NCBI GenBank assembly: GCA_964395745.1
Contig: CAYNAX010000001.1
Span: 3,568 to 29,925 of the forward strand
Direction: 5' to 3'
DNA: 26,358 bases
DNA from: an uncultured Candidatus Saccharibacteria bacterium
Lineage (GTDB): Bacteria; Patescibacteriota; Minisyncoccia; Minisyncoccales; PEYH01
Part shown: positions 9,388 to 25,700 of the stretch, piece after piece
How positions within the stretch are numbered: the stretch's first letter is position 1
Layout: the number at the start of each line of letters is the position of its first letter
Notes under the pieces: generated by a model
What the model was told of the DNA's origin: nothing
Database searches by the model: none
Seen by the model: only the letters and a program-made list of their open reading frames with translations
Program-made: the position numbers and the translations under genes

Positions 9388-11133
9388 TTATTCAATTATT
9401 ACCCTCAAAACTTCTTCTATAGAAGTAATTCCTTGGGCTGCTTTTACAAACCCATCCTCTACCATCGTTCTCATTCCTTCTTTTAATGCCTGTTTTTGAA
9501 TTTCTTCATCGCTTACCTCTTGAGTGATTAATTTCTTTATTGTTTCTGTAACTGATAAAACCTCAAAAATACCGATTCTACCTTTATACCCTTCTTCGCA
9601 AGTTTTAGTGGGTTTTGGTCTGTAAAATTTAATATCGCGAATTGTTTTATTGCGCCCCTTTATTAATCCTTCTTCTTTTAAGATTTTTGTAATCCTTTCT
9701 AAGTCACAATATTTTGAAATTCTTTTTATGGCCGCGTCATCTAAATAATACTCTTCTTTATCTTCGCAAAGCCTCCTTACCAATCTCTGGGCTATAACTA
9801 TATTAAGGGTTGAGGCAATTAAAAAAGGTTCTACTTTCATATCTATCAATCTTGGAATTGCTCCAGCGGCGCTATTGGTGTGAAGAGTAGAAAGAACAAG
9901 ATGTCCGGTAAGGGCAGCATTTACTGCTAAAGAGGCGGTTTCATTATCTCTTATCTCTCCGACCATAATAATATCAGGGTCCTGCCTTAAAAGAGATCTT
10001 AAACCATTTGCAAAAGTTAAGCCAATCTCGGGTTTCACTTGGGTCTGATTAACCCGGGGCATTCTATACTCTACCGGATCTTCAATAGTAGAAATATTTA
10101 CCTCAGGTGTATTAAGAATTTCTATCATTGAATACAAAGTAGTTGTTTTTCCTGAACCAGTAGGACCGGTAACTAAAATCATTCCTGTAGGTTTTCGCAA
10201 AGCCATTTGAACTTCTTCTAGGTCTCTACCTCTTAATCCCAATGTCTCTAAGTTATAACCCTTTGATTCTTCTGGAAGGATTCGCATTACTACTTTTTCG
10301 CCGTTGATAACAGGCAGCACGGATACTCTCACAGAAAATTTGTTACCCCCGCTTTCAAATCTAAATCGTCCGTCTTGAGGTAGTCTGTGTTCATCTAGTT
10401 TTAGGTCTGAAAGCACTTTAATTCTCGCCACAATACCCGGAGCAATATTTTTAGGGAGAGTCATTACTTCTCTTAAAATTCCATCTATTCTATACCTTAC
10501 TAAAACCTCTTTCTCTGTCGGTTCTATATGAATATCAGAGGCGCGATCTAGAACCGCATGCTGAAGCAGAGTGTCAACTATTTTAATTATTGGAACTTCC
10601 TGAGCAATTTTTTCTAAATTGTCCTGTTTTTCTGCTTTTGTTTCGATTGTTTTTATGCCCTGCGCCTCTTTTTGAATAATTCTGCCAAACTCTGCACTGA
10701 GGGTTTTTTTGTATTGAGCAAGAGCATTTTTGATACTTTCTGGATCAGTAAGTCGGGGCAAAATTTTAAGATTAGTTTTCTTTTTTATAAAATCAATTGT
10801 CTGAAGGTCTTCTGGGTCAAGCATAGCCACTTCCAAATTTCTACCTTTTTTCCGAAAAGCAACAATATTATGAGCCCTAGCAATCGGTTCTGGAATAATC
10901 TCCAAAATTTCCTTGGGAATAATCTCGTCTTTTAAACTGATAAAAGGAATCCCAAGGATATATGCTTTTAAACGAATGAGTTCCTCGGGTGAAATTAATT
11001 TATCCAAAATTAAAACATCTTCCAGTTTTTTACCTGTTTTTTTTGCTTTCTCCTCTGCCTTTTTTAAATCTTTTTCTTTAACAAGGTTTGTGTCTAGAAG
11101 AAAAAGTTTGAGTTGTTGATCCTCAACCTTCAT
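9388..11133 (-). CDS. pilB: Type IV pilus extension ATPase PilB / GspE family (operon copy)
   Basis: Walker A GPTGSGKTT, Asp box TIEDPVE, Walker B RQDPDIIMVGEIRD, His box TGHLVLSTLH, and a long N-terminal domain. Confidence 0.95.
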   Translation of the reverse strand: MKVEDQQLKLFLLDTNLVKEKDLKKAEEKAKKTGKKLEDVLILDKLISPEELIRLKAYILGIPFISLKDEIIPKEILEIIPEPIARAHNIVAFRKKGRNLEVAMLDPEDLQTIDFIKKKTNLKILPRLTDPESIKNALAQYKKTLSAEFGRIIQKEAQGIKTIETKAEKQDNLEKIAQEVPIIKIVDTLLQHAVLDRASDIHIEPTEKEVLVRYRIDGILREVMTLPKNIAPGIVARIKVLSDLKLDEHRLPQDGRFRFESGGNKFSVRVSVLPVINGEKVVMRILPEESKGYNLETLGLRGRDLEEVQMALRKPTGMILVTGPTGSGKTTTLYSMIEILNTPEVNISTIEDPVEYRMPRVNQTQVKPEIGLTFANGLRSLLRQDPDIIMVGEIRDNETASLAVNAALTGHLVLSTLHTNSAAGAIPRLIDMKVEPFLIASTLNIVIAQRLVRRLCEDKEEYYLDDAAIKRISKYCDLERITKILKEEGLIKGRNKTIRDIKFYRPKPTKTCEEGYKGRIGIFEVLSVTETIKKLITQEVSDEEIQKQALKEGMRTMVEDGFVKAAQGITSIEEVLRVIIE

Positions 11134-11159: not shown

Positions 11160-11525
11160 TTATTGAATGGTTTCTTTTATCTTTTTGATAACTTCGTCCA
11201 GTTTATAATCTGATTTTACCAGGTATGCTCGCGCGCCTAAACTGACGGCTTTCTCTATTCCTTGGGGGTTCTCTATATTGGTGAGAACTATTACTGGAAT
11301 ATCTTTTGTTTTCTCATCCTCTCTTAATTTTGCCAAGAGATCTAATCCGTGCATTTTGGGCAGAATAAGGTCAAGAAGAATTAAATCTGGAAGTTCCTGC
11401 TGCGCCAATCTTAAACCCGTCTCTCCATCAAGAGCGCTGAGAACCTTGTATCCTTCTTTTCTCAGAGTCTCCCCTATGGTTTTTTGAAGCGTTGCTTCAT
11501 CTTCTATAAATAATATTTTTTTCAT
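11160..11525 (-). CDS. Single-domain response regulator (REC only)
   Basis: KILFIEDE, LILLDLILP phospho-Asp, VIVLT and YLVK conserved. No output domain. Confidence 0.93.
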   Translation of the reverse strand: MKKILFIEDEATLQKTIGETLRKEGYKVLSALDGETGLRLAQQELPDLILLDLILPKMHGLDLLAKLREDEKTKDIPVIVLTNIENPQGIEKAVSLGARAYLVKSDYKLDEVIKKIKETIQ

Positions 11526-11535
11526 AAAACCAGGG

Positions 11536-12465
11536 TTAATTCTTAGGTAGGATTATTGTAAAAATGGTTCCTTTGCTAAGTTTTGAAGAAAAATATATTT
11601 TACCCCCTAGACGCTCAACAATAGTTTTTACAATAAAAAGGCCAAGTCCTGAACCGCAAGGATCTTTCTCCATAGCATTGCTTGCTCTAAAAAATTTTTG
11701 AAAAAGAAATTGTTTTGATTTGTCAGGTATACCTATGCCTGTATCCTGAATTTTCAAGATAACTTTTTTTCTCCCCTTATTTCTTGTTATTATTCTCACC
11801 CTTCCTTTAGGTTTATTGTATCTAATTGCATTATCTAAAAGATTTTCAACAACAGTTTTTAGCAAATCCTCTGGCTGAGTTATCTCAATTTTGTCAGGAT
11901 TACAATCAAGCTCTACTTTTATATTGGAGGCCCTTATTAAGGGAGAGAAATTTTTTACCACTTCTCTTATTATTTTGTTAAGGTCGAAGGGGTGTTTAGA
12001 AAAAACTCTTGGGTTTTTAATTTTGGCAACGATTACCAGATCATTAACTAAATTGTCCATTCTTTGAATGTTTTCTTCAATAAGGTCGAAATATTCTTTA
12101 TAAGAAGGAGGGAGTTGCTTGATTTCTTTTTCTTTTTGGACACTCTCCAGCAACCATTTAAGGTTGGTAATTGGGGCCCGAAGTTGATGAGAAACAATAT
12201 TGGAAAAATCCTCTTTGAGTTTGTTTATTTCTACTAGATCTTCCAAACTTCGGGTGATAACATAAGCAATAACAAACAGGATTGCAGAAATAGCAGAAAC
12301 TATTAAAGCAACGATACGCGGATCATCAATATATCTTTGGCCCAGAAAATAGAAAAAGATAGTTGAGACAATGTTAATAACGCCCATCACCAAGAACAAG
12401 AACTGAGGACACTGCCACAGAGGAAGGCCTAAACTTTTACAGTTTGAGATAAATTTTAGTCTCAT
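11536..12465 (-). CDS. Membrane sensor histidine kinase (2 TM, HisKA, HATPase_c)
   Basis: Two hydrophobic helices, H-box SHQLRAP, N-box NLLDNAIRY, G1 DTGIGIP, G2 GSGLGL. Confidence 0.93.
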   Translation of the reverse strand: MRLKFISNCKSLGLPLWQCPQFLFLVMGVINIVSTIFFYFLGQRYIDDPRIVALIVSAISAILFVIAYVITRSLEDLVEINKLKEDFSNIVSHQLRAPITNLKWLLESVQKEKEIKQLPPSYKEYFDLIEENIQRMDNLVNDLVIVAKIKNPRVFSKHPFDLNKIIREVVKNFSPLIRASNIKVELDCNPDKIEITQPEDLLKTVVENLLDNAIRYNKPKGRVRIITRNKGRKKVILKIQDTGIGIPDKSKQFLFQKFFRASNAMEKDPCGSGLGLFIVKTIVERLGGKIYFSSKLSKGTIFTIILPKN

Positions 12466-12471
12466 AGTTTT

Positions 12472-12501
12472 ATTCTATCATATTGTTTCAACCTCTGTCG
12501 A
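12472..12501 (-). promoter_or_regulatory. Putative extended -10 promoter of the HK-REC-pilus operon (leaderless geometry)
   Basis: Minus strand TCGACA (12501-12496), N18, TGA-TAGAAT (12477-12472), then 6 nt to the ATG at 12465. Confidence 0.55.
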
Positions 12502-12504
12502 CCT

Positions 12505-12528
12505 TTCGATATTTCGATATCTCGATAT
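12505..12528. repeat. Octamer direct repeat x3 (TTCGATAT TTCGATAT CTCGATAT)
   Basis: Read directly at 12505-12512, 12513-12520 and 12521-12528 in the divergent HK/rpsT intergenic region. Confidence 0.85.
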
Positions 12529-12541
12529 TTTTAATTCCTGC

Positions 12542-12570
12542 TTGAAATTATCATCATTTTCTGATAACCT
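12542..12570 (+). promoter_or_regulatory. Putative sigma70 promoter of rpsT
   Basis: TTGAAA (12542-12547), N17, TAACCT (12565-12570). Confidence 0.4.
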
Positions 12571-12601
12571 TGTGTATATAACAAAATTATTAAAAATTAA
12601 T

Positions 12602-12856
12602 ATGCCTATCAGCAAATCTGCCAAAAAAGCCCTTCGGCAAAGCATCAAAAGAAAAAAAAGGAACCTCTGGTACAAAAAAAGGATGAAATCCTTGATCAAG
12701 GAATTTCATTCTTTGCTTGGCGCAAACAAAAAAGAAGAAGCCAAAAAACTTCTTCCTAGCATTTACAAAATAATCGATAAATCAGCCAAGGTTGGAGTTT
12801 TGAAAAAGGGGGCTGCGGCAAGAAAAAAATCAAAAATTGCCAAGAAAGCAATCTAA
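12602..12856 (+). CDS. rpsT: 30S ribosomal protein S20
   Basis: MPISKSAKKALRQS..R...N and IDKSAKVGVLKKGAAARKKS match S20. Start corrected to the ATG at 12602. Confidence 0.96.
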   Translation: MPISKSAKKALRQSIKRKKRNLWYKKRMKSLIKEFHSLLGANKKEEAKKLLPSIYKIIDKSAKVGVLKKGAAARKKSKIAKKAI

Positions 12857-12858
12857 TT

Positions 12859-13770
12859 TTAGGTTTCCAAGATTAATAGCTCAAGCGCCTCTAATGAATC
12901 CATCTTTCCCGTTTTCACGGCTAAATCTATTTTAAATAATTTTTGATAGATTTGTTTTAACTTTTTAAGATCAAAAAAACGGCTCAATTCTTGGATTTTT
13001 TTTATTTGGAAAAAAGACATTCCAGACTCCTCAATAAAACGAGGGGAGTTTTTTCCTTCTTGATATACAATAAGATTCCTGAACTGAAAATTAATCATTG
13101 CTAAAAGATAAAGAGGTGAATCTCCTTTTTGAAGATGTTGATTAATAAGATTAAGCGCTGTTTTTTTATGTCTTTTGGCAATTGCTTCTATCATTCTAAA
13201 AACATCTAAATCAATCTCTGGCTTAACAAGTTTTAACACATCCTGGGTGTCTATTTTTCTCTCAAAGAATTTATAGGCCTTTAATTTTGCCAGTTCGCTA
13301 GCAAAACGCTCAGGATGAGAGCCTAAAAATTCAACAAGGGTATCCAGAGCGATATCGTCTATAGTAAAATTCTCTTCTTTGAGGTCATTTTTAATAATTT
13401 TTTTTATCTCTGCCTTACCTAATAAAGAAAATTGAAAAACCTTTCCTATTTTTTGAATTTCTTTTAAAAGTTTATCTTTTGAAGAAATTTCTTTACTTTC
13501 AAAAATAATAATCTCTTGATCCTGGAGTTTCTTTATTCCTTTTTGAAATTCCTCTTTTAAAGTTTTTCTTTCCCACAAAGAGTTTATTACAAAAAACTTT
13601 TTCTCTCCAAAAAGAGATTGCGACCTAAACTCCTCTAAAAATTGCCTAACATCTGCATAATCTTTATCAAGAAATTCCGGAGTAAAACCTCTTTTTTTAT
13701 AATCCTCTATCAATTCTTGCTTTTTTTTCTTAGACAAATATATGTTTTTTCCGTAGATTAAATAAATCAT
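12859..13770 (-). CDS. holA: DNA polymerase III subunit delta
   Basis: MIYLIYG start, SQSLFGEKK, ELAKLKAY, and C-terminal DLAVKTG. The ATG at 13770 overlaps the mutM stop (ATGA). Convergent with rpsT. Confidence 0.9.
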   Translation of the reverse strand: MIYLIYGKNIYLSKKKKQELIEDYKKRGFTPEFLDKDYADVRQFLEEFRSQSLFGEKKFFVINSLWERKTLKEEFQKGIKKLQDQEIIIFESKEISSKDKLLKEIQKIGKVFQFSLLGKAEIKKIIKNDLKEENFTIDDIALDTLVEFLGSHPERFASELAKLKAYKFFERKIDTQDVLKLVKPEIDLDVFRMIEAIAKRHKKTALNLINQHLQKGDSPLYLLAMINFQFRNLIVYQEGKNSPRFIEESGMSFFQIKKIQELSRFFDLKKLKQIYQKLFKIDLAVKTGKMDSLEALELLILET

Positions 13771-14639
13771 AGTTTTTGACATTTTGGACAAAAATAAGTA
13801 GAACGTGATCCTATTTTTCTTCGTTCTATTTTTGTACCACAAACATAACAAGGCATTCCTTCTCGTCTATAAACTTTTCTTTCTTTATCAAACCCTCCTT
13901 TCCTACCATCAGGCCTTCGATAATCAGAAATACTTTCTCCTCCCAACTTAATTGCTTTTTTTAACACGCTCTTGATGCTTTTATAAATTCTTTCTGATTC
14001 TTTTACCTTAAGGGTGTTGGCTGGTTTAAAAGGGTGAACTCTTGCCCGAAAGAGAATTTCGTCAGAATAAATATTGCCTATGCCTGAAATTATTTTTTGA
14101 TCCATCAAAACTGCTTTGATTTTTCTTTTTTGGTTTTGTATTATCTCTTTAAATTTATCAAAGGTGAAATTTTTATCTAAAGGATCGGGGCCTAATTGTT
14201 TTAAATCTTTTAGGTTCTCTAATTCTCTTGCTGTTAAAAGTTCTATTCTTCCAAATTTTCTTAAATCAGAAAAAGCAATCATTAACCCATTGTCTAAAAA
14301 AAATATAAGATGTATAAACCTATTCATTGGATCTTCTAAAGGGCCTTTTTTAACAGAAACCCATTCTCCTTTTTCTTTTTTCCATTGGCCCACAAGCAAA
14401 TGTCCTGTAAGTTTTTGATGAATTAAGAGTCGCTTGTCTCCTGACAAATAGAAAATGATAAATTTACCCTTTCTTTTAATGTCTTGTATTTTTCTTCCTT
14501 TTATTTCTCTCTTGAATTTTGCTAGGTTCGGTTTCTTGATAAGTTTGGGAGTGTCTGTCCATATATCAAGAAAAGTCCTTTGAAGGACTTTTCTTTTCAA
14601 ATCCAAAACCGTTGTTTCTACTTCTGGAAGTTCTGGCAT
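13767..14639 (-). CDS. mutM: Formamidopyrimidine-DNA glycosylase / AP lyase
   Basis: N-terminal MPELPEVET, RKGK, H2TH GIGNIYSDEILF, and zinc finger CYVC...CPKCQ. Confidence 0.98.
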   Translation of the reverse strand: MPELPEVETTVLDLKRKVLQRTFLDIWTDTPKLIKKPNLAKFKREIKGRKIQDIKRKGKFIIFYLSGDKRLLIHQKLTGHLLVGQWKKEKGEWVSVKKGPLEDPMNRFIHLIFFLDNGLMIAFSDLRKFGRIELLTARELENLKDLKQLGPDPLDKNFTFDKFKEIIQNQKRKIKAVLMDQKIISGIGNIYSDEILFRARVHPFKPANTLKVKESERIYKSIKSVLKKAIKLGGESISDYRRPDGRKGGFDKERKVYRREGMPCYVCGTKIERRKIGSRSTYFCPKCQKL

Positions 14640-14644
14640 AATAT

Positions 14645-15019
14645 CTATTTGTTTTTTGCTAAAACAAGTTTGATCTTTTCTACAATCTCCTCTGGAGTAA
14701 AGTGGGCTTTAATAAGAAAATCTACCGCTCCCAGATTAAGCCCTTTCTCTATTTCATCTTTCTGTCCTAAGTTTGAAAGAATAACCACCGGAATAGAAGC
14801 TGTCTTTTCGTCCTCCTTTATTCTTTTTAAAACCTCAAACCCATCAATACCTGGTAAAATTAAATCAAGAAGAATTAAATCGGGCATTATCTTTTTTGCC
14901 TTTCTCACACCATCTTCACCATCTATTGCTTCTTCTACTTCATACCCTTCTTTGATAAGCTTCTTGGCTATAAGCTCTCTTAAGAATTTATCATCTTCAA
15001 CTATTAAAATTTGTGCCAT
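14645..15019 (-). CDS. Single-domain response regulator (REC only)
   Basis: ILIVEDD, LILLDLILP, VVILS and FLIK. No output domain. Confidence 0.93.
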   Translation of the reverse strand: MAQILIVEDDKFLRELIAKKLIKEGYEVEEAIDGEDGVRKAKKIMPDLILLDLILPGIDGFEVLKRIKEDEKTASIPVVILSNLGQKDEIEKGLNLGAVDFLIKAHFTPEEIVEKIKLVLAKNK

Positions 15020-15058
15020 ATATAAGTTTTAATTTTATACAGCAATTTAAAGTGTTTG

Positions 15059-15436
15059 TTATTCTGGTTCTCCTAACACTGCTTTCACCTTTTGCAAAAC
15101 CTCTGCTGGGTCAAACTCTGTTTTAATAAGCCAATCCTTAGCTCCAAGTTGCTTTGCCTTATCTAACTCTACGGGTTGTCCTGAATTAGAAATAATAATG
15201 ACAGGAATATCCTTGATTGATGGATCTTTTTGCATTGCCTCCATTACTTCAAAGCCGCTTATCTTTGGCATTATTATATCCAATAATACCAAATCAGGGA
15301 CAATATCGCGAATAGCCTTCAATCCTTTTTCTCCGTCTAGGGCACAGTAAACATCATATCCCAAACCTTCTAGTTTGTCTTTTAGAAGGTCTAGTAAAAT
15401 TTCTTCATCTTCAATAATAAGTATTTTTTTTGCCAT
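15059..15436 (-). CDS. Single-domain response regulator (REC only)
   Basis: ILIIEDE, LVLLDIIMP, VIIIS and WLIK. No output domain. Confidence 0.93.
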   Translation of the reverse strand: MAKKILIIEDEEILLDLLKDKLEGLGYDVYCALDGEKGLKAIRDIVPDLVLLDIIMPKISGFEVMEAMQKDPSIKDIPVIIISNSGQPVELDKAKQLGAKDWLIKTEFDPAEVLQKVKAVLGEPE

Positions 15437-15465
15437 AAATTTTCTTTAATATTAACCCTTTTAAT

Positions 15466-15493
15466 ATTATATCATTTAAAATGCTAATGGCAA
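15466..15493 (-). promoter_or_regulatory. Putative internal promoter for the two receiver genes
   Basis: Minus strand TTGCCA (15493-15488), N16, with TGA-TATAAT extended -10 (15471-15466). Confidence 0.6.
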
Positions 15494-17053
15494 AGTAAAA
15501 TAAAAAGTTGTTCCTTTATTCTCTTGAGATTTAAACCAAATTTTGCCCCCATGCGCTTCTATAATATTTTTTGTGATAAAAAGCCCCAAGCCCGTTCCCT
15601 CTGTTTGCATTCTAACAACATTTGCTCCTCTAAAAAATTTTGTAAAGATTCTCTCTTGTTGATCTTTAGGAATTCCTACTCCAGTATCCTTAACAGAAAA
15701 AACAAGTTCACGCCTCTTTTTTCTCTCCTTAACAGAAACTTCTACCTTTCCTTTTTCCGGCGTATATTTAAGCGCGTTTTCTATTAGGTTCTTCACCGCC
15801 AAACTTATCTTTTCTACATCTACCTTTACTATTTTTTTGCCTTCAGAAATTTCCAGCTTAAATTCAATTTTCTTTTGTTTAGCATACTCTTTTAACGAAT
15901 TATATACCGATTCTACAATTTCTGAGAACTCTACAATTTTGGGCTCATAAACAAACCTGCCCTCTTCTATTCTGGCAACATTTAGAAGATCGTTCACTAA
16001 GTCAATCATTCTTTCATTTGTCTGATATGCTTTTAAAACAAGATCTTTGTCTTCTTTGCTTAATCTTTTTCCCTCTCTTAAAAGACTTAAACTCCATTTA
16101 ATAATTGAGAGGGGCGTTCTTAGTTGGTGAGCAGCAACAGATACAAATTGACTCTTCATCTGTTCTATCAATTTTTCTCTTGAAACATCGTGTAAAATAA
16201 CCAAAATAAGTTTTTCCTTCCCTTGTAATTCAACTATGCTGATGGTTATTTCCAAGAAAAATGATTTACTTATTGCCATCTCCTTTCTAAAAACCTCTTT
16301 TGTTTCCTCTCCCGCTATTTTAAAAATTTGGGCCCACCTTCTGTTTTTTCTCTTTAATGTTTTAGCATCTTTCCCTAAAACCTCTTCTGCTTTTGTTTTT
16401 AGAAATTCTTCGGCTTTAGGATTAATTAAAATTAATTTCTTTGTTTTGTTGAAAACCAAAATCCCATCTACAAAATTCTTAATAATAGCCTCTGTCTTTT
16501 TTCTTTCTTCTTCAGCCCGCCGACGGGCTTCTTCTGTGTCTTCTAATATATTTAAAAGGGCTTTTCGCGACTCCTCTAATTCTTTTGTCCTTTGAATAAC
16601 CTTCTGTTCAATTTCTTCTTGGATTCTTTTTAAGCCGCTAATATCAGTTATTGCGACAAAAAACCCCACAATGTCACCCTCCACATCTTTTCTTGCAGCA
16701 AAAGAAACCTTAACAGCAATCTTTTTTTTCTCTTTTGTTAGTAAGGTCAATTGTATGTTTTCTGTCTCCCCTGATTCTAATAGGTGCTTCTGAATTTTTT
16801 TAACTTTCTCTTTTTCTAAGAAAATCTTTTCTAACCTTTCTCCAACAATCTCTATTTGGTTGTATCCTGTTAGTTTTTCAAAAGATTTATTTGTATTGCT
16901 TATCACTCCCAAAGGATTTAAATCACAAATCGCTATGGGCAGAAAAGAAAAAAGATCGTTTAAATACGAAGAAACATTTAACAGTTCTTCTTTTGTTTCT
17001 TTGACTTCTTCTCTGAGTTTTAAAAATCTCTTTTTAGACAAAAAACAAAACAT
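15476..17053 (-). CDS. Cytoplasmic PAS-PAS histidine kinase
   Basis: No TM. PAS1 (NKSFEKLTGY..EIVG), coiled coil (VIQRTKEL), PAS2 (DGILVF..INPKAEEFL), H-box AHQLRTP, NLIENALKY, DTGVGIP and GTGLGL. Confidence 0.93.
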   Translation of the reverse strand: MFCFLSKKRFLKLREEVKETKEELLNVSSYLNDLFSFLPIAICDLNPLGVISNTNKSFEKLTGYNQIEIVGERLEKIFLEKEKVKKIQKHLLESGETENIQLTLLTKEKKKIAVKVSFAARKDVEGDIVGFFVAITDISGLKRIQEEIEQKVIQRTKELEESRKALLNILEDTEEARRRAEEERKKTEAIIKNFVDGILVFNKTKKLILINPKAEEFLKTKAEEVLGKDAKTLKRKNRRWAQIFKIAGEETKEVFRKEMAISKSFFLEITISIVELQGKEKLILVILHDVSREKLIEQMKSQFVSVAAHQLRTPLSIIKWSLSLLREGKRLSKEDKDLVLKAYQTNERMIDLVNDLLNVARIEEGRFVYEPKIVEFSEIVESVYNSLKEYAKQKKIEFKLEISEGKKIVKVDVEKISLAVKNLIENALKYTPEKGKVEVSVKERKKRRELVFSVKDTGVGIPKDQQERIFTKFFRGANVVRMQTEGTGLGLFITKNIIEAHGGKIWFKSQENKGTTFYFTLPLAF

Positions 17054-17056
17054 ATC

Positions 17057-17665
17057 CTATTTCCAACTTATTACATATTCGTGATAGGGATCATTTCTAA
17101 ACACGCACTTTGTTTCTTCTATTGAAACTTCTTTATCTCCTCCTAAAGCCAGACGGGCTATTTCTGAGAAATAGCCTTTATGATATTGACACATTATCGG
17201 GTGAAACTTATAACCTTTAACTCTTATCACTGTATATTTTTCAATTTCATTAAACTCAACTGGCTCAACTTCGCCAAAATCAAAATGTTTTGCCCAATAC
17301 CGAGGACTTTCTTCGAAACATCTTTTTGGAGAAATAAAATACTTTGTCAAAATTTTAAGAAAAAAAGAAAGTTTCACTGCCGATCTTCCCATTTCAAAAA
17401 TCCCTTCTTTGTTTAATCCCAAAATCTCTTTTGCTAAAAGAACAATTATCACGCTAATTGCCTCAGGATACATCTCCATGGGCTTTATCTCCTCTAAAGT
17501 AAGTTCTATACCAAGTTCTTTCATTCTCTTTTTTAATTGCTCTACCGCCTTCTCTCCTCCTTTAATTTTAATATAATCTATATCTGCTAAAATTACGCCC
17601 CCTTTTACATTTCCTGGAATTTTCATTAAACGTTTTACCTCTTTTGGGCTAAGTTTATCTTCCAT
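17057..17665 (-). CDS. Stand-alone V4R / H-NOX-like (DUF2378-like) putative ligand-binding protein
   Basis: N-terminus VKGGVI...G...V..I.P.E.YP..I..EMGR resembles the H-NOX/V4R fold pattern. The C-terminus has C159, E184, C187 and H195 in V4R-type metal-site spacing. The family is assigned from recalled motifs, not from a search. Confidence 0.65.
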   Translation of the reverse strand: MEDKLSPKEVKRLMKIPGNVKGGVILADIDYIKIKGGEKAVEQLKKRMKELGIELTLEEIKPMEMYPEAISVIIVLLAKEILGLNKEGIFEMGRSAVKLSFFLKILTKYFISPKRCFEESPRYWAKHFDFGEVEPVEFNEIEKYTVIRVKGYKFHPIMCQYHKGYFSEIARLALGGDKEVSIEETKCVFRNDPYHEYVISWK

Positions 17666-17687
17666 TTTAAGATTAATGTTTTACGGG

Positions 17688-18353
17688 TTAATTTTTCGAC
17701 CTATATTTTTCCAGTTCTTTCTCAAGTTGACGAATTCTCTGTTTTAATTCTATCATTTTTGTTTCTCTTCCTACTGTAAGTTTATGGAATCTTTCCAGTT
17801 GCTTTATCCTCTCTTGTAGTTCTTTTGTTCTTTCTTTTACTTGAGCGTCTAAATTCTTTGCCATTTCCTCAAGTTCTCTGGTTCTTGCTTTTACCCTAAC
17901 TTCTAAAACTTTTTTCTCTTCTTCTAGTTGATCTTTGGTTTCTTTGAGTTGGCCTATCATAAAATTGAATTCTTTTCCAAGTTGGGCTAATTCGTCATTC
18001 CCTTTAACTTCCACTCTTGTGTTTAAATCGCCGGCTGCAGCTCTTTTAACCACTTTCACCAACTCTCTAATAGGAGCAACAATCCTCTGGGTAAAGATTA
18101 CTGCAAAAAACATTGTCATTAATACCACAAAAACAAAAGTAGAGGCTGCCACAATCCATGTGTTAAATATATTTGCCTCCACATTACTAAACTCTTCAAG
18201 CGGAAGCATCTCTTTTAAAGGGTCTATTGCTGTTTCGTATCCGCGATTAATGATGTATGCGAAAATTAAGTTTGAAAAAATAGTAATTGCCAGAATACCA
18301 TAAAAAATTCTGAAAAAGATACTCCCTTGTTTTGCTCTTTGGAGTGGCTTCAT
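17688..18353 (-). CDS. 2-TM HAMP-domain protein with a C-terminal coiled coil and no catalytic output domain
   Basis: Two TM helices, HAMP (IVAPIRELVKVVKRAAAGDL...GNDELAQLGKEFNFM), then VKARTREL/VKERTKEL heptads to the stop. Confidence 0.9.
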   Translation of the reverse strand: MKPLQRAKQGSIFFRIFYGILAITIFSNLIFAYIINRGYETAIDPLKEMLPLEEFSNVEANIFNTWIVAASTFVFVVLMTMFFAVIFTQRIVAPIRELVKVVKRAAAGDLNTRVEVKGNDELAQLGKEFNFMIGQLKETKDQLEEEKKVLEVRVKARTRELEEMAKNLDAQVKERTKELQERIKQLERFHKLTVGRETKMIELKQRIRQLEKELEKYRSKN

Positions 18354-21018: not shown

Positions 21019-22317
21019 ATGGTGAAAATAACCGACAAAATTGTTATACCTTCAAACATCCAGAAATTGGTTCAAGAAAAAGTTGAAAGTGTGTCTGATT
21101 TTGCCAAAGAAATTGAAAATTTTTTAAATAAAGATATTAGCGAACTTCTCAGTTTAATTTTGGCTGGCGCAATCCATTTGTTTGCCTCAGATATCCACTT
21201 AGAACCCCAGGAAGAAAACGTTCGTTTAAGAATCAGGTTAGACGGAATGCTTCAAGATGTCTTTTCTTTTCAGCCAGAAGCATATCGTCTTTTGCTCTCA
21301 AGAATAAAATTATTGGCCGGATTAAAATTAAACATCCATGATAGAGCCCAAGATGGAAGTTTTTCTGTTGCATTACCAAATTTAGAAATAGAAATAAGAA
21401 CTTCTGCCCTGCCCGCAGATTATGGCGAATCTATTGTAATGAGAATTTTAAATCCTCAAACCTTAAAAAACATTGAAGAATTGGGGTTAAGAAAAGATCT
21501 TTTAGAATTATTTAAAAGTGAAATCCAGAAACCAAACGGAATGATTATTGTGACTGGTCCTACCGGCTCAGGAAAAACTACTACCCTGTATGCTTTCCTG
21601 CGCTTTCTTCAAAAACCCGAAATCAAAATTATTACTATTGAAGATCCAATTGAGTACAGATTGGAAGGAATCTCACAAACAGAAGTTCATCCAGAAAAAG
21701 GATATGATTTTGCAAATGGTTTAAGATCCATTGTTCGCCAAGACCCAGATGTGATTCTCGTAGGAGAAATAAGAGATAAAGAAACCGCTGAAATTGCTTT
21801 GCAGGCGGCTCTCACCGGCCATTTGGTTTTTTCCACTCTTCATACAAACGATGCTCCGGGCGCTATTCCAAGACTGGCATCTTTGGGAGCAAATCCTATT
21901 AATATTGCACCGGCAATTAATATGATTATTGCTCAGAGATTGGTAAGAAAAGTGTGCCAAAAATGCGCTCTCCCAAGAAAAATTACTCCCGAAGAATTTC
22001 AAATGCTAAAATCAGAATTCTCTAATCTGCCCAAAGATATTAAAATCCCCAAAATTTCTCAGGATTTAGAAGTTGTGGAAGCAAAAGGTTGTAAATACTG
22101 CAATTTTACTGGTTATAAAGGAAGAGTGGGTATTTTTGAAGCTTTTTTAGTAGATTCTGAAATGGAAGATTTAATTCTTAGAAAGCCTTCTGTCTCTGAA
22201 ATGAGAAAAATAGCAGAGAAAAAAGGAATGGTTTCTATGTATAAAGATGGTTTAATAAAGGTTATAGAGAAAATTACCACTATAGAAGAGGTAAAAAGAG
22301 TGGCTATGGAAAGGTGA
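21019..22317 (+). CDS. pilB: Second PilB/GspE-family secretion ATPase (short N-terminus)
   Basis: ASDIHLEP, GPTGSGKTT, TIEDPIEY, RQDPDVILVGEIRD, TGHLVFSTLH, intact CQKC...CKYC and GYKGR. No PilT AIRNLIRE motif. Confidence 0.88.
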   Translation: MVKITDKIVIPSNIQKLVQEKVESVSDFAKEIENFLNKDISELLSLILAGAIHLFASDIHLEPQEENVRLRIRLDGMLQDVFSFQPEAYRLLLSRIKLLAGLKLNIHDRAQDGSFSVALPNLEIEIRTSALPADYGESIVMRILNPQTLKNIEELGLRKDLLELFKSEIQKPNGMIIVTGPTGSGKTTTLYAFLRFLQKPEIKIITIEDPIEYRLEGISQTEVHPEKGYDFANGLRSIVRQDPDVILVGEIRDKETAEIALQAALTGHLVFSTLHTNDAPGAIPRLASLGANPINIAPAINMIIAQRLVRKVCQKCALPRKITPEEFQMLKSEFSNLPKDIKIPKISQDLEVVEAKGCKYCNFTGYKGRVGIFEAFLVDSEMEDLILRKPSVSEMRKIAEKKGMVSMYKDGLIKVIEKITTIEEVKRVAMER

Positions 22318-22332
22318 TTAGTTAAAAATTTA

Positions 22333-22449
22333 AAATCCCTGACTGGAAATCTTGGAAAGCAACCAAAACCAGGATTTTTCCGAGGCATAGCCCAGCCGGA
22401 GCCAGGCTACCCAGTAGCTAAGAAAAATCCCTCTTCCAGTCAGGGACTT
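22333..22449 (-). ncRNA. Putative ~117-nt structured non-coding RNA (unassigned; 6S-like rod is one hypothesis)
   Basis: 16-bp terminal stem, 10-bp inner stem, 9-bp apical hairpin with a C(UCCG)G loop and a 6-bp side hairpin. Five G-U pairs exist only on the minus strand. A consensus promoter lies directly upstream and a T-rich run downstream. Confidence 0.75.
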
Positions 22450-22454
22450 AATAT

Positions 22455-22483
22455 ATTATAGCAAACATCAAAATGTCTGTCAA
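22455..22483 (-). promoter_or_regulatory. Perfect consensus sigma70 promoter driving the putative ncRNA
   Basis: Minus strand TTGACA (22483-22478), exactly 17 nt, TATAAT (22460-22455). The predicted +1 at ~22449/22448 coincides with the first base of the terminal stem. Confidence 0.85.
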
Positions 22484-23480
22484 GAGAAAAGACACCCGTG
22501 CAACCGAAGAGACAATAGATGCTGTTTTACGACCCCAAAAATGGGAGGAGTATGTTGGGCAAGAAAGGGTTAAAAAAAACCTGAAAGTTATTATTGAGGC
22601 GGCAAAAAAAAGAAAAGAAAATCCTGATCATCTTCTCTTTTATGGCGCCCCAGGCCTAGGCAAAACCACACTTGCTTATCTCGTTGCCAAAGAACTAAAG
22701 GCAAATATAAGAATTACAGCCGGGCCCATAATTGAAAGACCTGGCGATTTAGCTGCTCTTCTTACCAATCTTTCTGATGGAGACATTCTTTTTATAGACG
22801 AAATCCATAGATTAAGTAAAACATGCGAGGAACTGATATATCCTGCAATGGAGGATTTTAAACTACATCTTGTAACCGGCAAGGGGGCTATGGCACAAAC
22901 CTTAGAACTTCAACTCCCTAAATTTACCCTGATAGGAGCAACAACAAGAATAGCCCTCTTGTCTTCCCCTTTAAGAAGTCGCTTTGGAGCCACTTTTCAA
23001 TTAAATTTCTATACAAAAGAAGATATCAAAAAAATTATCAGGCGCTCTGCTAATATCCTTGGGGTTGAAGTAACCGAGCAAGCAATCGACTTAATTTCAG
23101 AAAGAAGTCGCTTTACTCCCCGAATAGCAAACAGGCTTTTAAAACGTCTTCGTGATTTCGCTCAAATTGAAGGAAATGGCGTCATTGATAAGAACATTGC
23201 CCAAACTGGATTTGAAGCTATGGGTATTGATAATTTGGGGTTAGAAGAATCTGATCGAAAAATCCTGAGAACAATAATCCAGAAATTTAATGGCGGGCCT
23301 GTAGGAATTCAAGCATTAGCGGCAACCCTTGGAGAAGAAATCGATACTATCTTAGAAATATATGAGCCCTACCTTCTTCAACTGGGACTTCTAAAAAGAA
23401 CTCATCGGGGAAGAATAGCAACTGATCTTGCTTATTCTCATTTAGGTTTTACTTCCAAAAGCAAACAAATATCTTTTTAA
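22473..23480 (+). CDS. ruvB: Holliday junction branch-migration ATPase RuvB
   Basis: LRPQKWEEYVGQ, GAPGLGKTT, FIDEIHRL, LIGATTR, PLRSRFG, TPRIANRLL and YEPYLLQ..LKRTHRGR. Confidence 0.98.
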   Translation: MSVKRKDTRATEETIDAVLRPQKWEEYVGQERVKKNLKVIIEAAKKRKENPDHLLFYGAPGLGKTTLAYLVAKELKANIRITAGPIIERPGDLAALLTNLSDGDILFIDEIHRLSKTCEELIYPAMEDFKLHLVTGKGAMAQTLELQLPKFTLIGATTRIALLSSPLRSRFGATFQLNFYTKEDIKKIIRRSANILGVEVTEQAIDLISERSRFTPRIANRLLKRLRDFAQIEGNGVIDKNIAQTGFEAMGIDNLGLEESDRKILRTIIQKFNGGPVGIQALAATLGEEIDTILEIYEPYLLQLGLLKRTHRGRIATDLAYSHLGFTSKSKQISF

Positions 23481-25517: not shown

Positions 25518-25700
25518 ATGGAATATAAATCAGAATTATTCCTTGTAAGCCAAGAAGAATTAGACGAAAACGAAGAAGAAATGCCCGAGGAAGAAGAGGA
25601 GACCACAGAAGAAGAAAGTTGGGATGAGGAAGGCGAAGAAGAATTAGGAGGAGATGAAGAAGAAGAGGAATTGGGAGAGGAAGAGGAAGAAGAAGTATAA
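25518..25700 (+). CDS. 60-aa hyper-acidic, probably disordered protein
   Basis: 32 Glu + 3 Asp in 60 aa with a single Lys. Mixed GAA/GAG codons rather than a simple repeat. Flanked by its own promoter and terminator. Confidence 0.75.
   Translation: MEYKSELFLVSQEELDENEEEMPEEEEETTEEESWDEEGEEELGGDEEEEELGEEEEEEV

Follow-up and report, generated by a model that had tools for sequence, protein, structure and literature searches.

What is encoded in the short interval that separates a gene for a PilB-type ATPase from ruvB in the stretch of Patescibacteria DNA analysed here (the window, 26,358 nucleotides long), and what might its product do? The first-pass annotation had placed a structured RNA in this interval, on the strand opposite to both genes, and had proposed for it a minus-strand TTGACA-N17-TATAAT promoter whose -35 box lies over codons 2-4 of ruvB. 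Both claims are borne out: every element lies where it had been placed, the promoter scores 12/12 and has a TG extension, and the ATG of ruvB is found at 22473. The features of the locus, in their order along the window, are the following.

21019-22317, plus strand: T2SSE/PilB-type ATPase gene, flanking the RNA gene on one side
22325-22449, minus strand: predicted transcript (structured body and U-rich tail), both ends inferred from sequence
22333-22348, minus strand: 3' arm of helix P1 (UUCCAGUCAGGGAUUU), with a U run directly 3' of it
22349-22369, minus strand: side hairpin P4, 7 bp with a 7-nt loop
22371-22431, minus strand: P2-P3 arm, comprising the next three features
22431-22421 with 22381-22371, minus strand: helix P2, 11 bp
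22420-22411 and 22386-22382, minus strand: internal loop of the P2-P3 arm, with a 5-nt bulge
22410-22401 with 22396-22387, minus strand: helix P3, 10 bp, capped by a UCCG loop (22400-22397)
22434-22449, minus strand: 5' arm of helix P1 (AAGUCCCUGACUGGAA), pairing with 22333-22348 over 16 bp
22455-22463, minus strand: extended -10 box TGcTATAAT (TG 22463-22462, TATAAT 22460-22455) of the promoter scoring 12/12
22473-22475, plus strand: ruvB start codon, inside the RNA promoter and 23 nt from the first base of the RNA
22473-23480, plus strand: RuvB gene, flanking the RNA gene on the other side
22478-22483, minus strand: -35 hexamer TTGACA, overlapping ruvB codons 2-4 of the opposite strand

The 17-nt spacer between TTGACA and TATAAT ends in TGc on the minus strand. 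A promoter scan of the entire 26-kb window revealed a single sigma-70 promoter with a score of 12/12, namely that of the RNA gene, and matches with at most one mismatch are expected only 0.24 times per shuffled window. The structured RNA extends from A22449, located 5 nt after the -10 box, to 22332 (118 nt) and is followed on the minus strand by UUUUAAAUUUUU; its body opens with AAGUCCCUGACUGGAA and closes with UUCCAGUCAGGGAUUUU at 22332, after which comes AAAUUUUU. Since the U run stands directly after the 3' arm of P1, this arm probably doubles as a terminator stem. The locus is most likely an independently transcribed gene, the product of which is predicted to be a small, almost fully paired RNA of about 118-125 nt, read on the minus strand from 22449 to approximately 22325.

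The 128-nt stretch containing this RNA has a minimum free energy of -61.5 kcal/mol (z = -6.25), and none of 200 shuffled sequences was equally stable; the fold of the plus strand is weaker (-43 kcal/mol) and its ensemble diffuse. In the minimum free energy structure, P1, the P2-P3 arm and P4 form a tight three-way junction in which the linkers measure 2, 1 and 0-1 nt. The four helices originally proposed are reproduced, but three of them are longer by one pair in both the minimum free energy and consensus folds (P2 has 11 bp instead of 10, P3 has 10 instead of 9, and P4 has 7 instead of 6), and the five G-U pairs first counted become eight. The G+C content at the RNA gene is 45-47%, compared with about 30-38% in much of the flanks. 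The sole open reading frame touching the RNA (22113-22388, minus strand, 91 aa) starts inside it, and was rejected because its ATG is lost in the relatives L084 and L085; the earlier view that no ORF accounts for the RNA is thus upheld.

Contigs sharing the gene order of the window were reached through RuvB homologues of 79-97% identity. In an alignment of the intergenic regions of these close relatives, the promoter and the RNA are near-invariant, whereas the flanks on both sides have diverged; the -35 hexamer is unchanged in all seven (7/7). The few substitutions within the P2-P3 arm include three compensatory pairs, two of them in P2 (G-C to A-U and U-A to C-G) and one in P3 (G-C to A-U), and the apical loop keeps to the UNCG pattern (UCCG, UCUG or UUCG). 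In L084 a different sequence has been substituted in P4, with retention of the hairpin.

A covariance model built from five close-relative sequences (R1) was used to search 80 RuvB loci from GTDB species representatives. Full-length matches were confined to contigs of Patescibacteria, where they lie immediately before ruvB and are read from the other strand, and in these matches the sequence of P1 is wholly changed yet still paired. The window RNA itself scores 136.8 bits with R1 and 117.2 bits with a second model, R2. Independently of gene context, metagenomes were scanned with a fixed-length pattern derived from the RNA core (TGG-N7-GGYTYYGGCT-N8-CCTCGR); approximately 40 of the 120 pattern loci match the covariance model at E <= 1, most of them as clear members, although the weakest few may be chance; the model E-values are rough. 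The five pattern matches in viral contigs all failed the covariance model and thus give no hint that the RNA came from phages. By the covariance model and the separate context-free pattern, about 60 homologues were identified in Patescibacteria (organism names as given by the MAG records), from lineages with as little as 55-65% identity between their RuvB proteins. Such counts are lower bounds, as the default model filters missed a clear member of the long form, distinct in its apical loop (L033:3605-3751, minus strand), which was recovered only when the filters were off. The same setting, applied to a 530-nt gap upstream of ruvB in L014, gave weak and unconvincing matches only.

The promoter is shared by most of the family. 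TTGACA, a 17-nt spacer and TAnnnT are present exactly in 38 of 43 members, mostly with the TG extension, and promoter scores of at least 11/12 were obtained 18 times on the RNA strand and not once on the reverse-strand control. A run of at least five T residues lies within 45 nt downstream of the RNA in 24 of the 43 members, and several (e.g. L005 and L010) have a textbook terminator.

Covariation across the family shows that it is the RNA structure that is maintained. In alignment A4 (21 sequences), 91.2% of cells are paired, compared with 35-57% in slid controls, 40 of 47 pairs show compensatory changes, and none of 500 shuffles reached the observed value; because A4 was aligned to the structure of the model, its pairing counts are inflated. 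Alignment A5 (27 long-form sequences) was produced with MAFFT only and is unfitted. It gave 92.7% paired cells against 41-47% in slid controls, with compensatory changes at 36 of 55 pairs and again 0/500 shuffles. All helices are supported in both alignments; in A4, every pair of P1 has compensatory changes across the family, as do 9/13 pairs of P2, 8/11 of P3 and 7/7 of P4. The transcribed strand is fixed by the great excess of G-U cells (139) over A-C cells (31) across the family. Thus, the strand-specific selection on RNA structure that had been deduced from a single sequence is confirmed, and so is the expectation that homologues with covarying helices would be found upstream of ruvB in other Patescibacteria. 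We are almost certain that this is a real RNA gene, belonging to a family that is absent from Rfam.

Two architectures can be distinguished within the family. The compact form, to which the window RNA belongs, is a three-way junction of about 118-127 nt. The long form is a four-way junction with a core of ~165 nt, an extra helix (H5) often carrying the loop CUAUCUUUUG, a longer P1 that includes the conserved segment CUGUAGRC/GYCUACAG, and a leader hairpin at the 5' end. Three loci (L106, L136 and L148) appear to be intermediate. In both alignments, conservation at the nucleotide level centres on the P2-P3 arm, although in the metagenome set this conservation is partly imposed by the search pattern (TGG, GGYTYYGGCT and CCTCG). 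The conserved positions comprise an A-U/G-C step and a bulge of 3-5 nt (of greater length in a few members), followed by a G-C pair and a mismatch, and lastly a helix that ends in G-U/G-C/C-G beneath the tetraloop. The pairs G48-C156, G58-C155 and G68-C145 (columns of A4) are invariant, and the wobble pair G67-U146 occurs in 17 of 21 sequences. A pseudoknot between the H5 loop of the long form (CUAUCUUUU) and the AGAYAUGG bulge was considered and dropped, as C/U variation in the bulge is uncompensated in the loop. When the collected loci were searched for sequences complementary to the H5 loop, as possible targets in trans, only the antisense of the RNA itself and a coincidence in coding sequence were returned.

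Is this a known RNA in an unfamiliar form? With gathering thresholds applied, a tRNA-Arg was the sole match of the 4227 Rfam 15 models to the window, and the 15 homologous loci searched had none. At E <= 10 (the window region and those of L010 and L025) only chance matches and no relevant family were obtained, the best being a model of a human lncRNA and IS128, whose 27.7 bits on the plus strand fall far short of its gathering score (80). ARAGORN predicted nothing at the RNA site, the sole tRNA of the window being the tRNA-Arg at 1297-1370. The comparison with Rfam proposed at the outset (6S, SRP and 5S) therefore gave no match, either in the window or in its homologues. In the literature on 6S RNA, non-coding RNAs, RNA motifs and ruvB in Patescibacteria, CPR and Parcubacteria, no description of this RNA was found.

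That a known RNA (SRP/4.5S RNA, 5S rRNA, Y RNA, a tRNA-like RNA or a ribozyme) has diverged so far as to be missed by these models is very unlikely. CPR RNAs are often divergent, the length of ~118 nt resembles that of 4.5S and 5S RNAs, and the long form is cloverleaf-like; against this stand the absence of any match at gathering thresholds in the window and 15 loci, of any relevant match at E <= 10, and of any ARAGORN prediction, as well as the anatomy of the molecule. Domain IV of SRP RNA is a hairpin with a GNRA tetraloop and with conserved loops of both the symmetric and the asymmetric kind. The RNA described here has a UNCG apical loop, different loop sequences and a three-way junction in place of a single hairpin, the loop motifs of SRP RNA are absent, and no bacterial SRP model of Rfam matched it. 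5S rRNA was likewise rejected (no match to RF00001; arms of 62 and 21 nt, hence not of similar lengths), and so were tRNA and tmRNA, for which neither ARAGORN nor Rfam gave a match at the RNA site. Bacterial Y RNAs (YrlA/Yrn), which act via protein binding, are similar in general shape only: a length of about 100-120 nt, a long stem formed by the two ends of the molecule, and a branched distal module. Unlike them, the new RNA has no match to an Rfam Y RNA model, no rsr (Ro) gene nearby and no recognisable Ro-binding helix motif.

The resemblance to 6S RNA (SsrS) deserves separate treatment, since the first-pass annotation had suggested a minimal 6S-like molecule, i.e. a closed rod with an internal bubble, which would bind the sigma-70 holoenzyme as a mimic of an open promoter. 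Like 6S RNA, the RNA is small, stable and mostly double-stranded, and is encoded by one copy with a strong sigma-70 promoter of the housekeeping type in conserved synteny; in its long-form relatives, a ~165-nt core plus leader brings the length into the 6S range, the closing stem and the distal arm are both long, and a small hairpin occupies each of the two positions that the strands of a central bubble would take. We know of no other 6S candidate for Patescibacteria, and a search of the literature also found none for the phylum. However, the large two-strand central bubble of 6S RNA is absent. The junction is tight (linkers of 2, 1 and 0-1 nt), the strand on the 5' side of the bubble is replaced by a linker of only 2 nt, and the 3' side is a covarying hairpin, both P4 and the H5 of the long form being supported by compensatory changes. 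Neither RF00013 nor a related model matched the window region or those of L010 and L025 even at E <= 10, or any of the 15 loci at the gathering threshold, and the 118 nt of the window RNA are well below the usual size of 6S RNA (about 150-200 nt). These data do not support the closed rod, and we consider a 6S-like role quite improbable. The other suggestion, a new class of CPR non-coding RNA, is favoured by the lack of an Rfam family and by the covarying homologues.

The perfect terminal inverted repeats (16 bp in the window) might also recall a DNA palindrome, a MITE/REP-like repeat or a mere terminator, and a transposase gene adjoins the RNA in two loci (L042 and L143). Within the window, however, the sequence of the P1 arm matches only the two arms of the RNA itself, and the RNA is present in a single copy both here and in every locus examined in relatives, where it keeps its syntenic position; many near-identical copies, which were named in advance as the finding that would mark it as a repeat, were not found in the window or in these loci. 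The compensatory changes and the excess of G-U pairs are those of an RNA, and the promoter is dedicated and conserved. An origin as a repeat element is scarcely credible.

The genomic position of the gene is unusually fixed. The window RNA represents the compact form of a family that is present in many Patescibacteria of the Parcubacteria/Paceibacteria type, and that is nearly always placed between a gene for a PilB-type ATPase and ruvB. An adjacent, divergent ruvB homologue was found in 17 of the 24 context-free matches checked; in three of the seven that have no ruvB (L109, L141 and L154) the RNA lies near the end of the contig, facing the side where ruvB is expected. Across the RNA from ruvB stands a gene for a T2SSE ATPase, which is a single protein of about 430-460 aa in some loci and a fused double protein of 827-1015 aa in others. 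Fused proteins, with two full T2SSE domains in one polypeptide, are encoded upstream in the long-form loci L025 (577-3594), L010 (797-3499), L094 (115-2598), L014 (370-3402) and L033 (205-3252). Exceptions to the common order include a locus with pilB, the RNA and then genes for LTD and YebC proteins (L114), one with a T2SSE gene, the RNA and an oxidoreductase gene (L094), and one in which the RNA adjoins an rve-type transposase gene (L143, 1491-2564), all three without ruvB, and also a locus in which a TPR gene replaces pilB (L013). The RNA is intact in all four of these loci, and is therefore independent of either neighbour. We also noted a gene of the 23S_rRNA_IVP family inserted between pilB and the RNA in L084 (2350-2811), and a weak match to an IS200-like Y1 transposase beside the RNA in L042 (2985-3563).

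Further features of the window were also noted. Downstream of ruvB are genes for an LTD protein and YebC (both by Pfam) and a 166-aa ORF matching the RuvC genes of relatives. Two paralogous PilB-type T2SSE ATPase genes (9388-11133, minus strand, and 21019-22317, plus strand) are visible as inverted repeats with 73-75% identity, and together with genes for PilM, T2SSF (PilC-type) and Ig-like surface proteins they form a type IV pilus gene cluster. A dense signalling cluster (11160-18353, minus strand) comprises genes for two histidine kinases, of which one has PAS domains, for a HAMP protein and for three receiver-domain proteins of the stand-alone type, which is notable for so small a genome. 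At 25607-25697 there is a GAA/GAG-rich near-tandem repeat with a copy spacing of 24-27 nt, which probably codes for a glutamate-rich stretch.

The contact between the RNA promoter and ruvB is closer than mere adjacency. Because the -35 box shares bases with the start of ruvB, the promoter element and the first codons of ruvB constrain each other. Outright fusion of the -35 box with the ruvB ATG is frequent among short-form loci and was recorded in L004, L005, L006, L089, L106 and L148, where the plus strand reads ATGTCAA, the reverse complement of TTGACAT. In nine long-form loci (L010, L028, L040, L146, L150, L155, L162, L163 and L198) a plus-strand extended -10 box (TGnTAAAAT-like) stands exactly 7 nt beyond the -35 box, which suggests that the promoters of the RNA and of ruvB overlap back to back there. 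Since the RNA promoter overlaps the start of ruvB (and apparently the ruvB promoter in long forms), a polymerase bound to this strong promoter should compete with transcription of ruvB and with read-through from pilB, as a secondary effect in cis. The interference with ruvB expression that the first-pass annotation had suggested is plausible on this geometry, which recurs in other lineages. The overlap would also explain passively why the gene order has remained frozen.

Could such an effect in cis be the primary function? In that case the strong promoter, directed head-on against read-through from pilB to ruvB or against an overlapping ruvB promoter, would set the expression of ruvB by transcriptional interference or through a long antisense duplex. 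As in systems of cis-antisense RNAs and overlapping divergent promoters, a strong promoter opposes a co-directional operon from within the start of a neighbouring gene (the -35 box over codons 2-4 in the window, the ATGTCAA fusion in six loci), no plus-strand terminator is predicted after pilB, and a transcript reading through from pilB into ruvB would be complementary to the RNA over its full length; the -10 boxes of the long form and the retention of a divergent ruvB in 17/24 matches agree with this. The RNA overlaps no ORF, its presumed overlap with pilB-ruvB read-through or with the ruvB 5' UTR being deduced from the absence of a terminator and from promoter geometry. Unlike in such systems, there is no coding overlap beyond the promoter, and the structure and the loop nucleotides are conserved phylum-wide; selection on the fold and on specific loop nucleotides over phylum-level distances is not needed for pure interference. 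Furthermore, the RNA and ruvB transcripts need not overlap in long-form loci, and loci that lack ruvB (L114, L094 and L143) still carry an RNA that scores high with the model, just as L013 retains the RNA without pilB, so that dependence on a partner gene is not observed. A primarily cis-acting role is therefore unlikely. A riboswitch or 5' leader was rejected because, in the window and most relatives, the minus strand downstream is antisense to pilB and the RNA has its own terminator.

A functional link to the Ruv proteins has also been considered, for instance as a mimic of a branched junction encoded at the usual position of ruvA. No RuvA-like gene was found within the ~4-5 kb flanks of about 60 RNA-bearing loci, or among the window ORFs scanned, whereas ruvA is present in the flanks of 37 RuvB loci that have no RNA, usually directly upstream of ruvB, including loci of Saccharimonadia and Woesebacteria. 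The three- or four-way junction RNA is itself encoded directly upstream of ruvB. It lies on the opposite strand, however, and persists without ruvB (L114 and L094), and the substrate on which RuvA and RuvB act is B-form DNA, all of which makes this an extremely doubtful explanation. It is notable in itself that RuvA and the RNA never occur together close to ruvB within the flanks examined (the ruvA-bearing loci that have no RNA are L047, L069, L077 and 34 others).

The reading that we favour is a function in trans. No conserved single-stranded stretch is usable as a base-pairing seed, and the invariant nucleotides are situated in the bulged internal loop and in the G-U-bearing apical hairpin of the P2-P3 arm. 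With no accessible single strand conserved, and with the conserved positions paired or bulged, the molecule is probably a stable protein-binding RNA. We put the probability that it acts in trans in this manner, as a component of a ribonucleoprotein or as a decoy, and not by pairing with mRNA, at roughly 0.5; the case for this is drawn from the anatomy of the RNA, and the stable synteny and the overlap of the promoter with the start codon are compatible with a primarily cis-acting role as well. The existence of a compact form devoid of H5 suggests that the ribonucleoprotein is modular, with the P2-P3 arm as its essential module.

The RNA can also be compared with orphan classes such as the raiA motif RNA and the various "motif" RNAs of Rfam, which are also defined by covariation, restricted to one lineage, endowed with conserved internal-loop nucleotides and without a known function. 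It differs from them in that it comes with a near-perfect promoter and a terminator of its own, in the unusual constancy of its position, in its modular three- and four-way forms, and in matching none of the 4227 Rfam 15 models. It is new at the level of the RNA family, lying outside every catalogued RNA family that could be tested; the claim is one of a new RNA class and not of a new mechanism.

Bacteria of the CPR/Patescibacteria represent a large share of bacterial diversity and have tiny genomes, and to our knowledge almost nothing is known of their non-coding RNAs. The RNA gene has been kept in these reduced genomes, has the best promoter of the window, and its structure is conserved among lineages with ~55-65% RuvB identity; for these reasons it is probably important to the cell. 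More tentatively, CPR bacteria of the Parcubacteria/Paceibacteria type may possess a stable RNA specific to their lineage, of which this would be the founding example; it would be abundant, form a ribonucleoprotein, and be unrelated to rRNA, tRNA, tmRNA, RNase P, SRP and 6S RNAs, with modular three- and four-way forms and a role possibly linked to its neighbours pilB, ruvB, yebC, ruvC and the LTD gene, i.e. to genes of DNA uptake and recombination.

Two alignments and the two covariance models now define the family, along with a search pattern and the fixed address in the genome, which makes the RNA annotatable in thousands of MAGs and searchable in existing metatranscriptomes. Moreover, the -35 box welded to the start of ruvB constitutes a clean natural case of overlapping signals for transcription and translation that constrain gene order.
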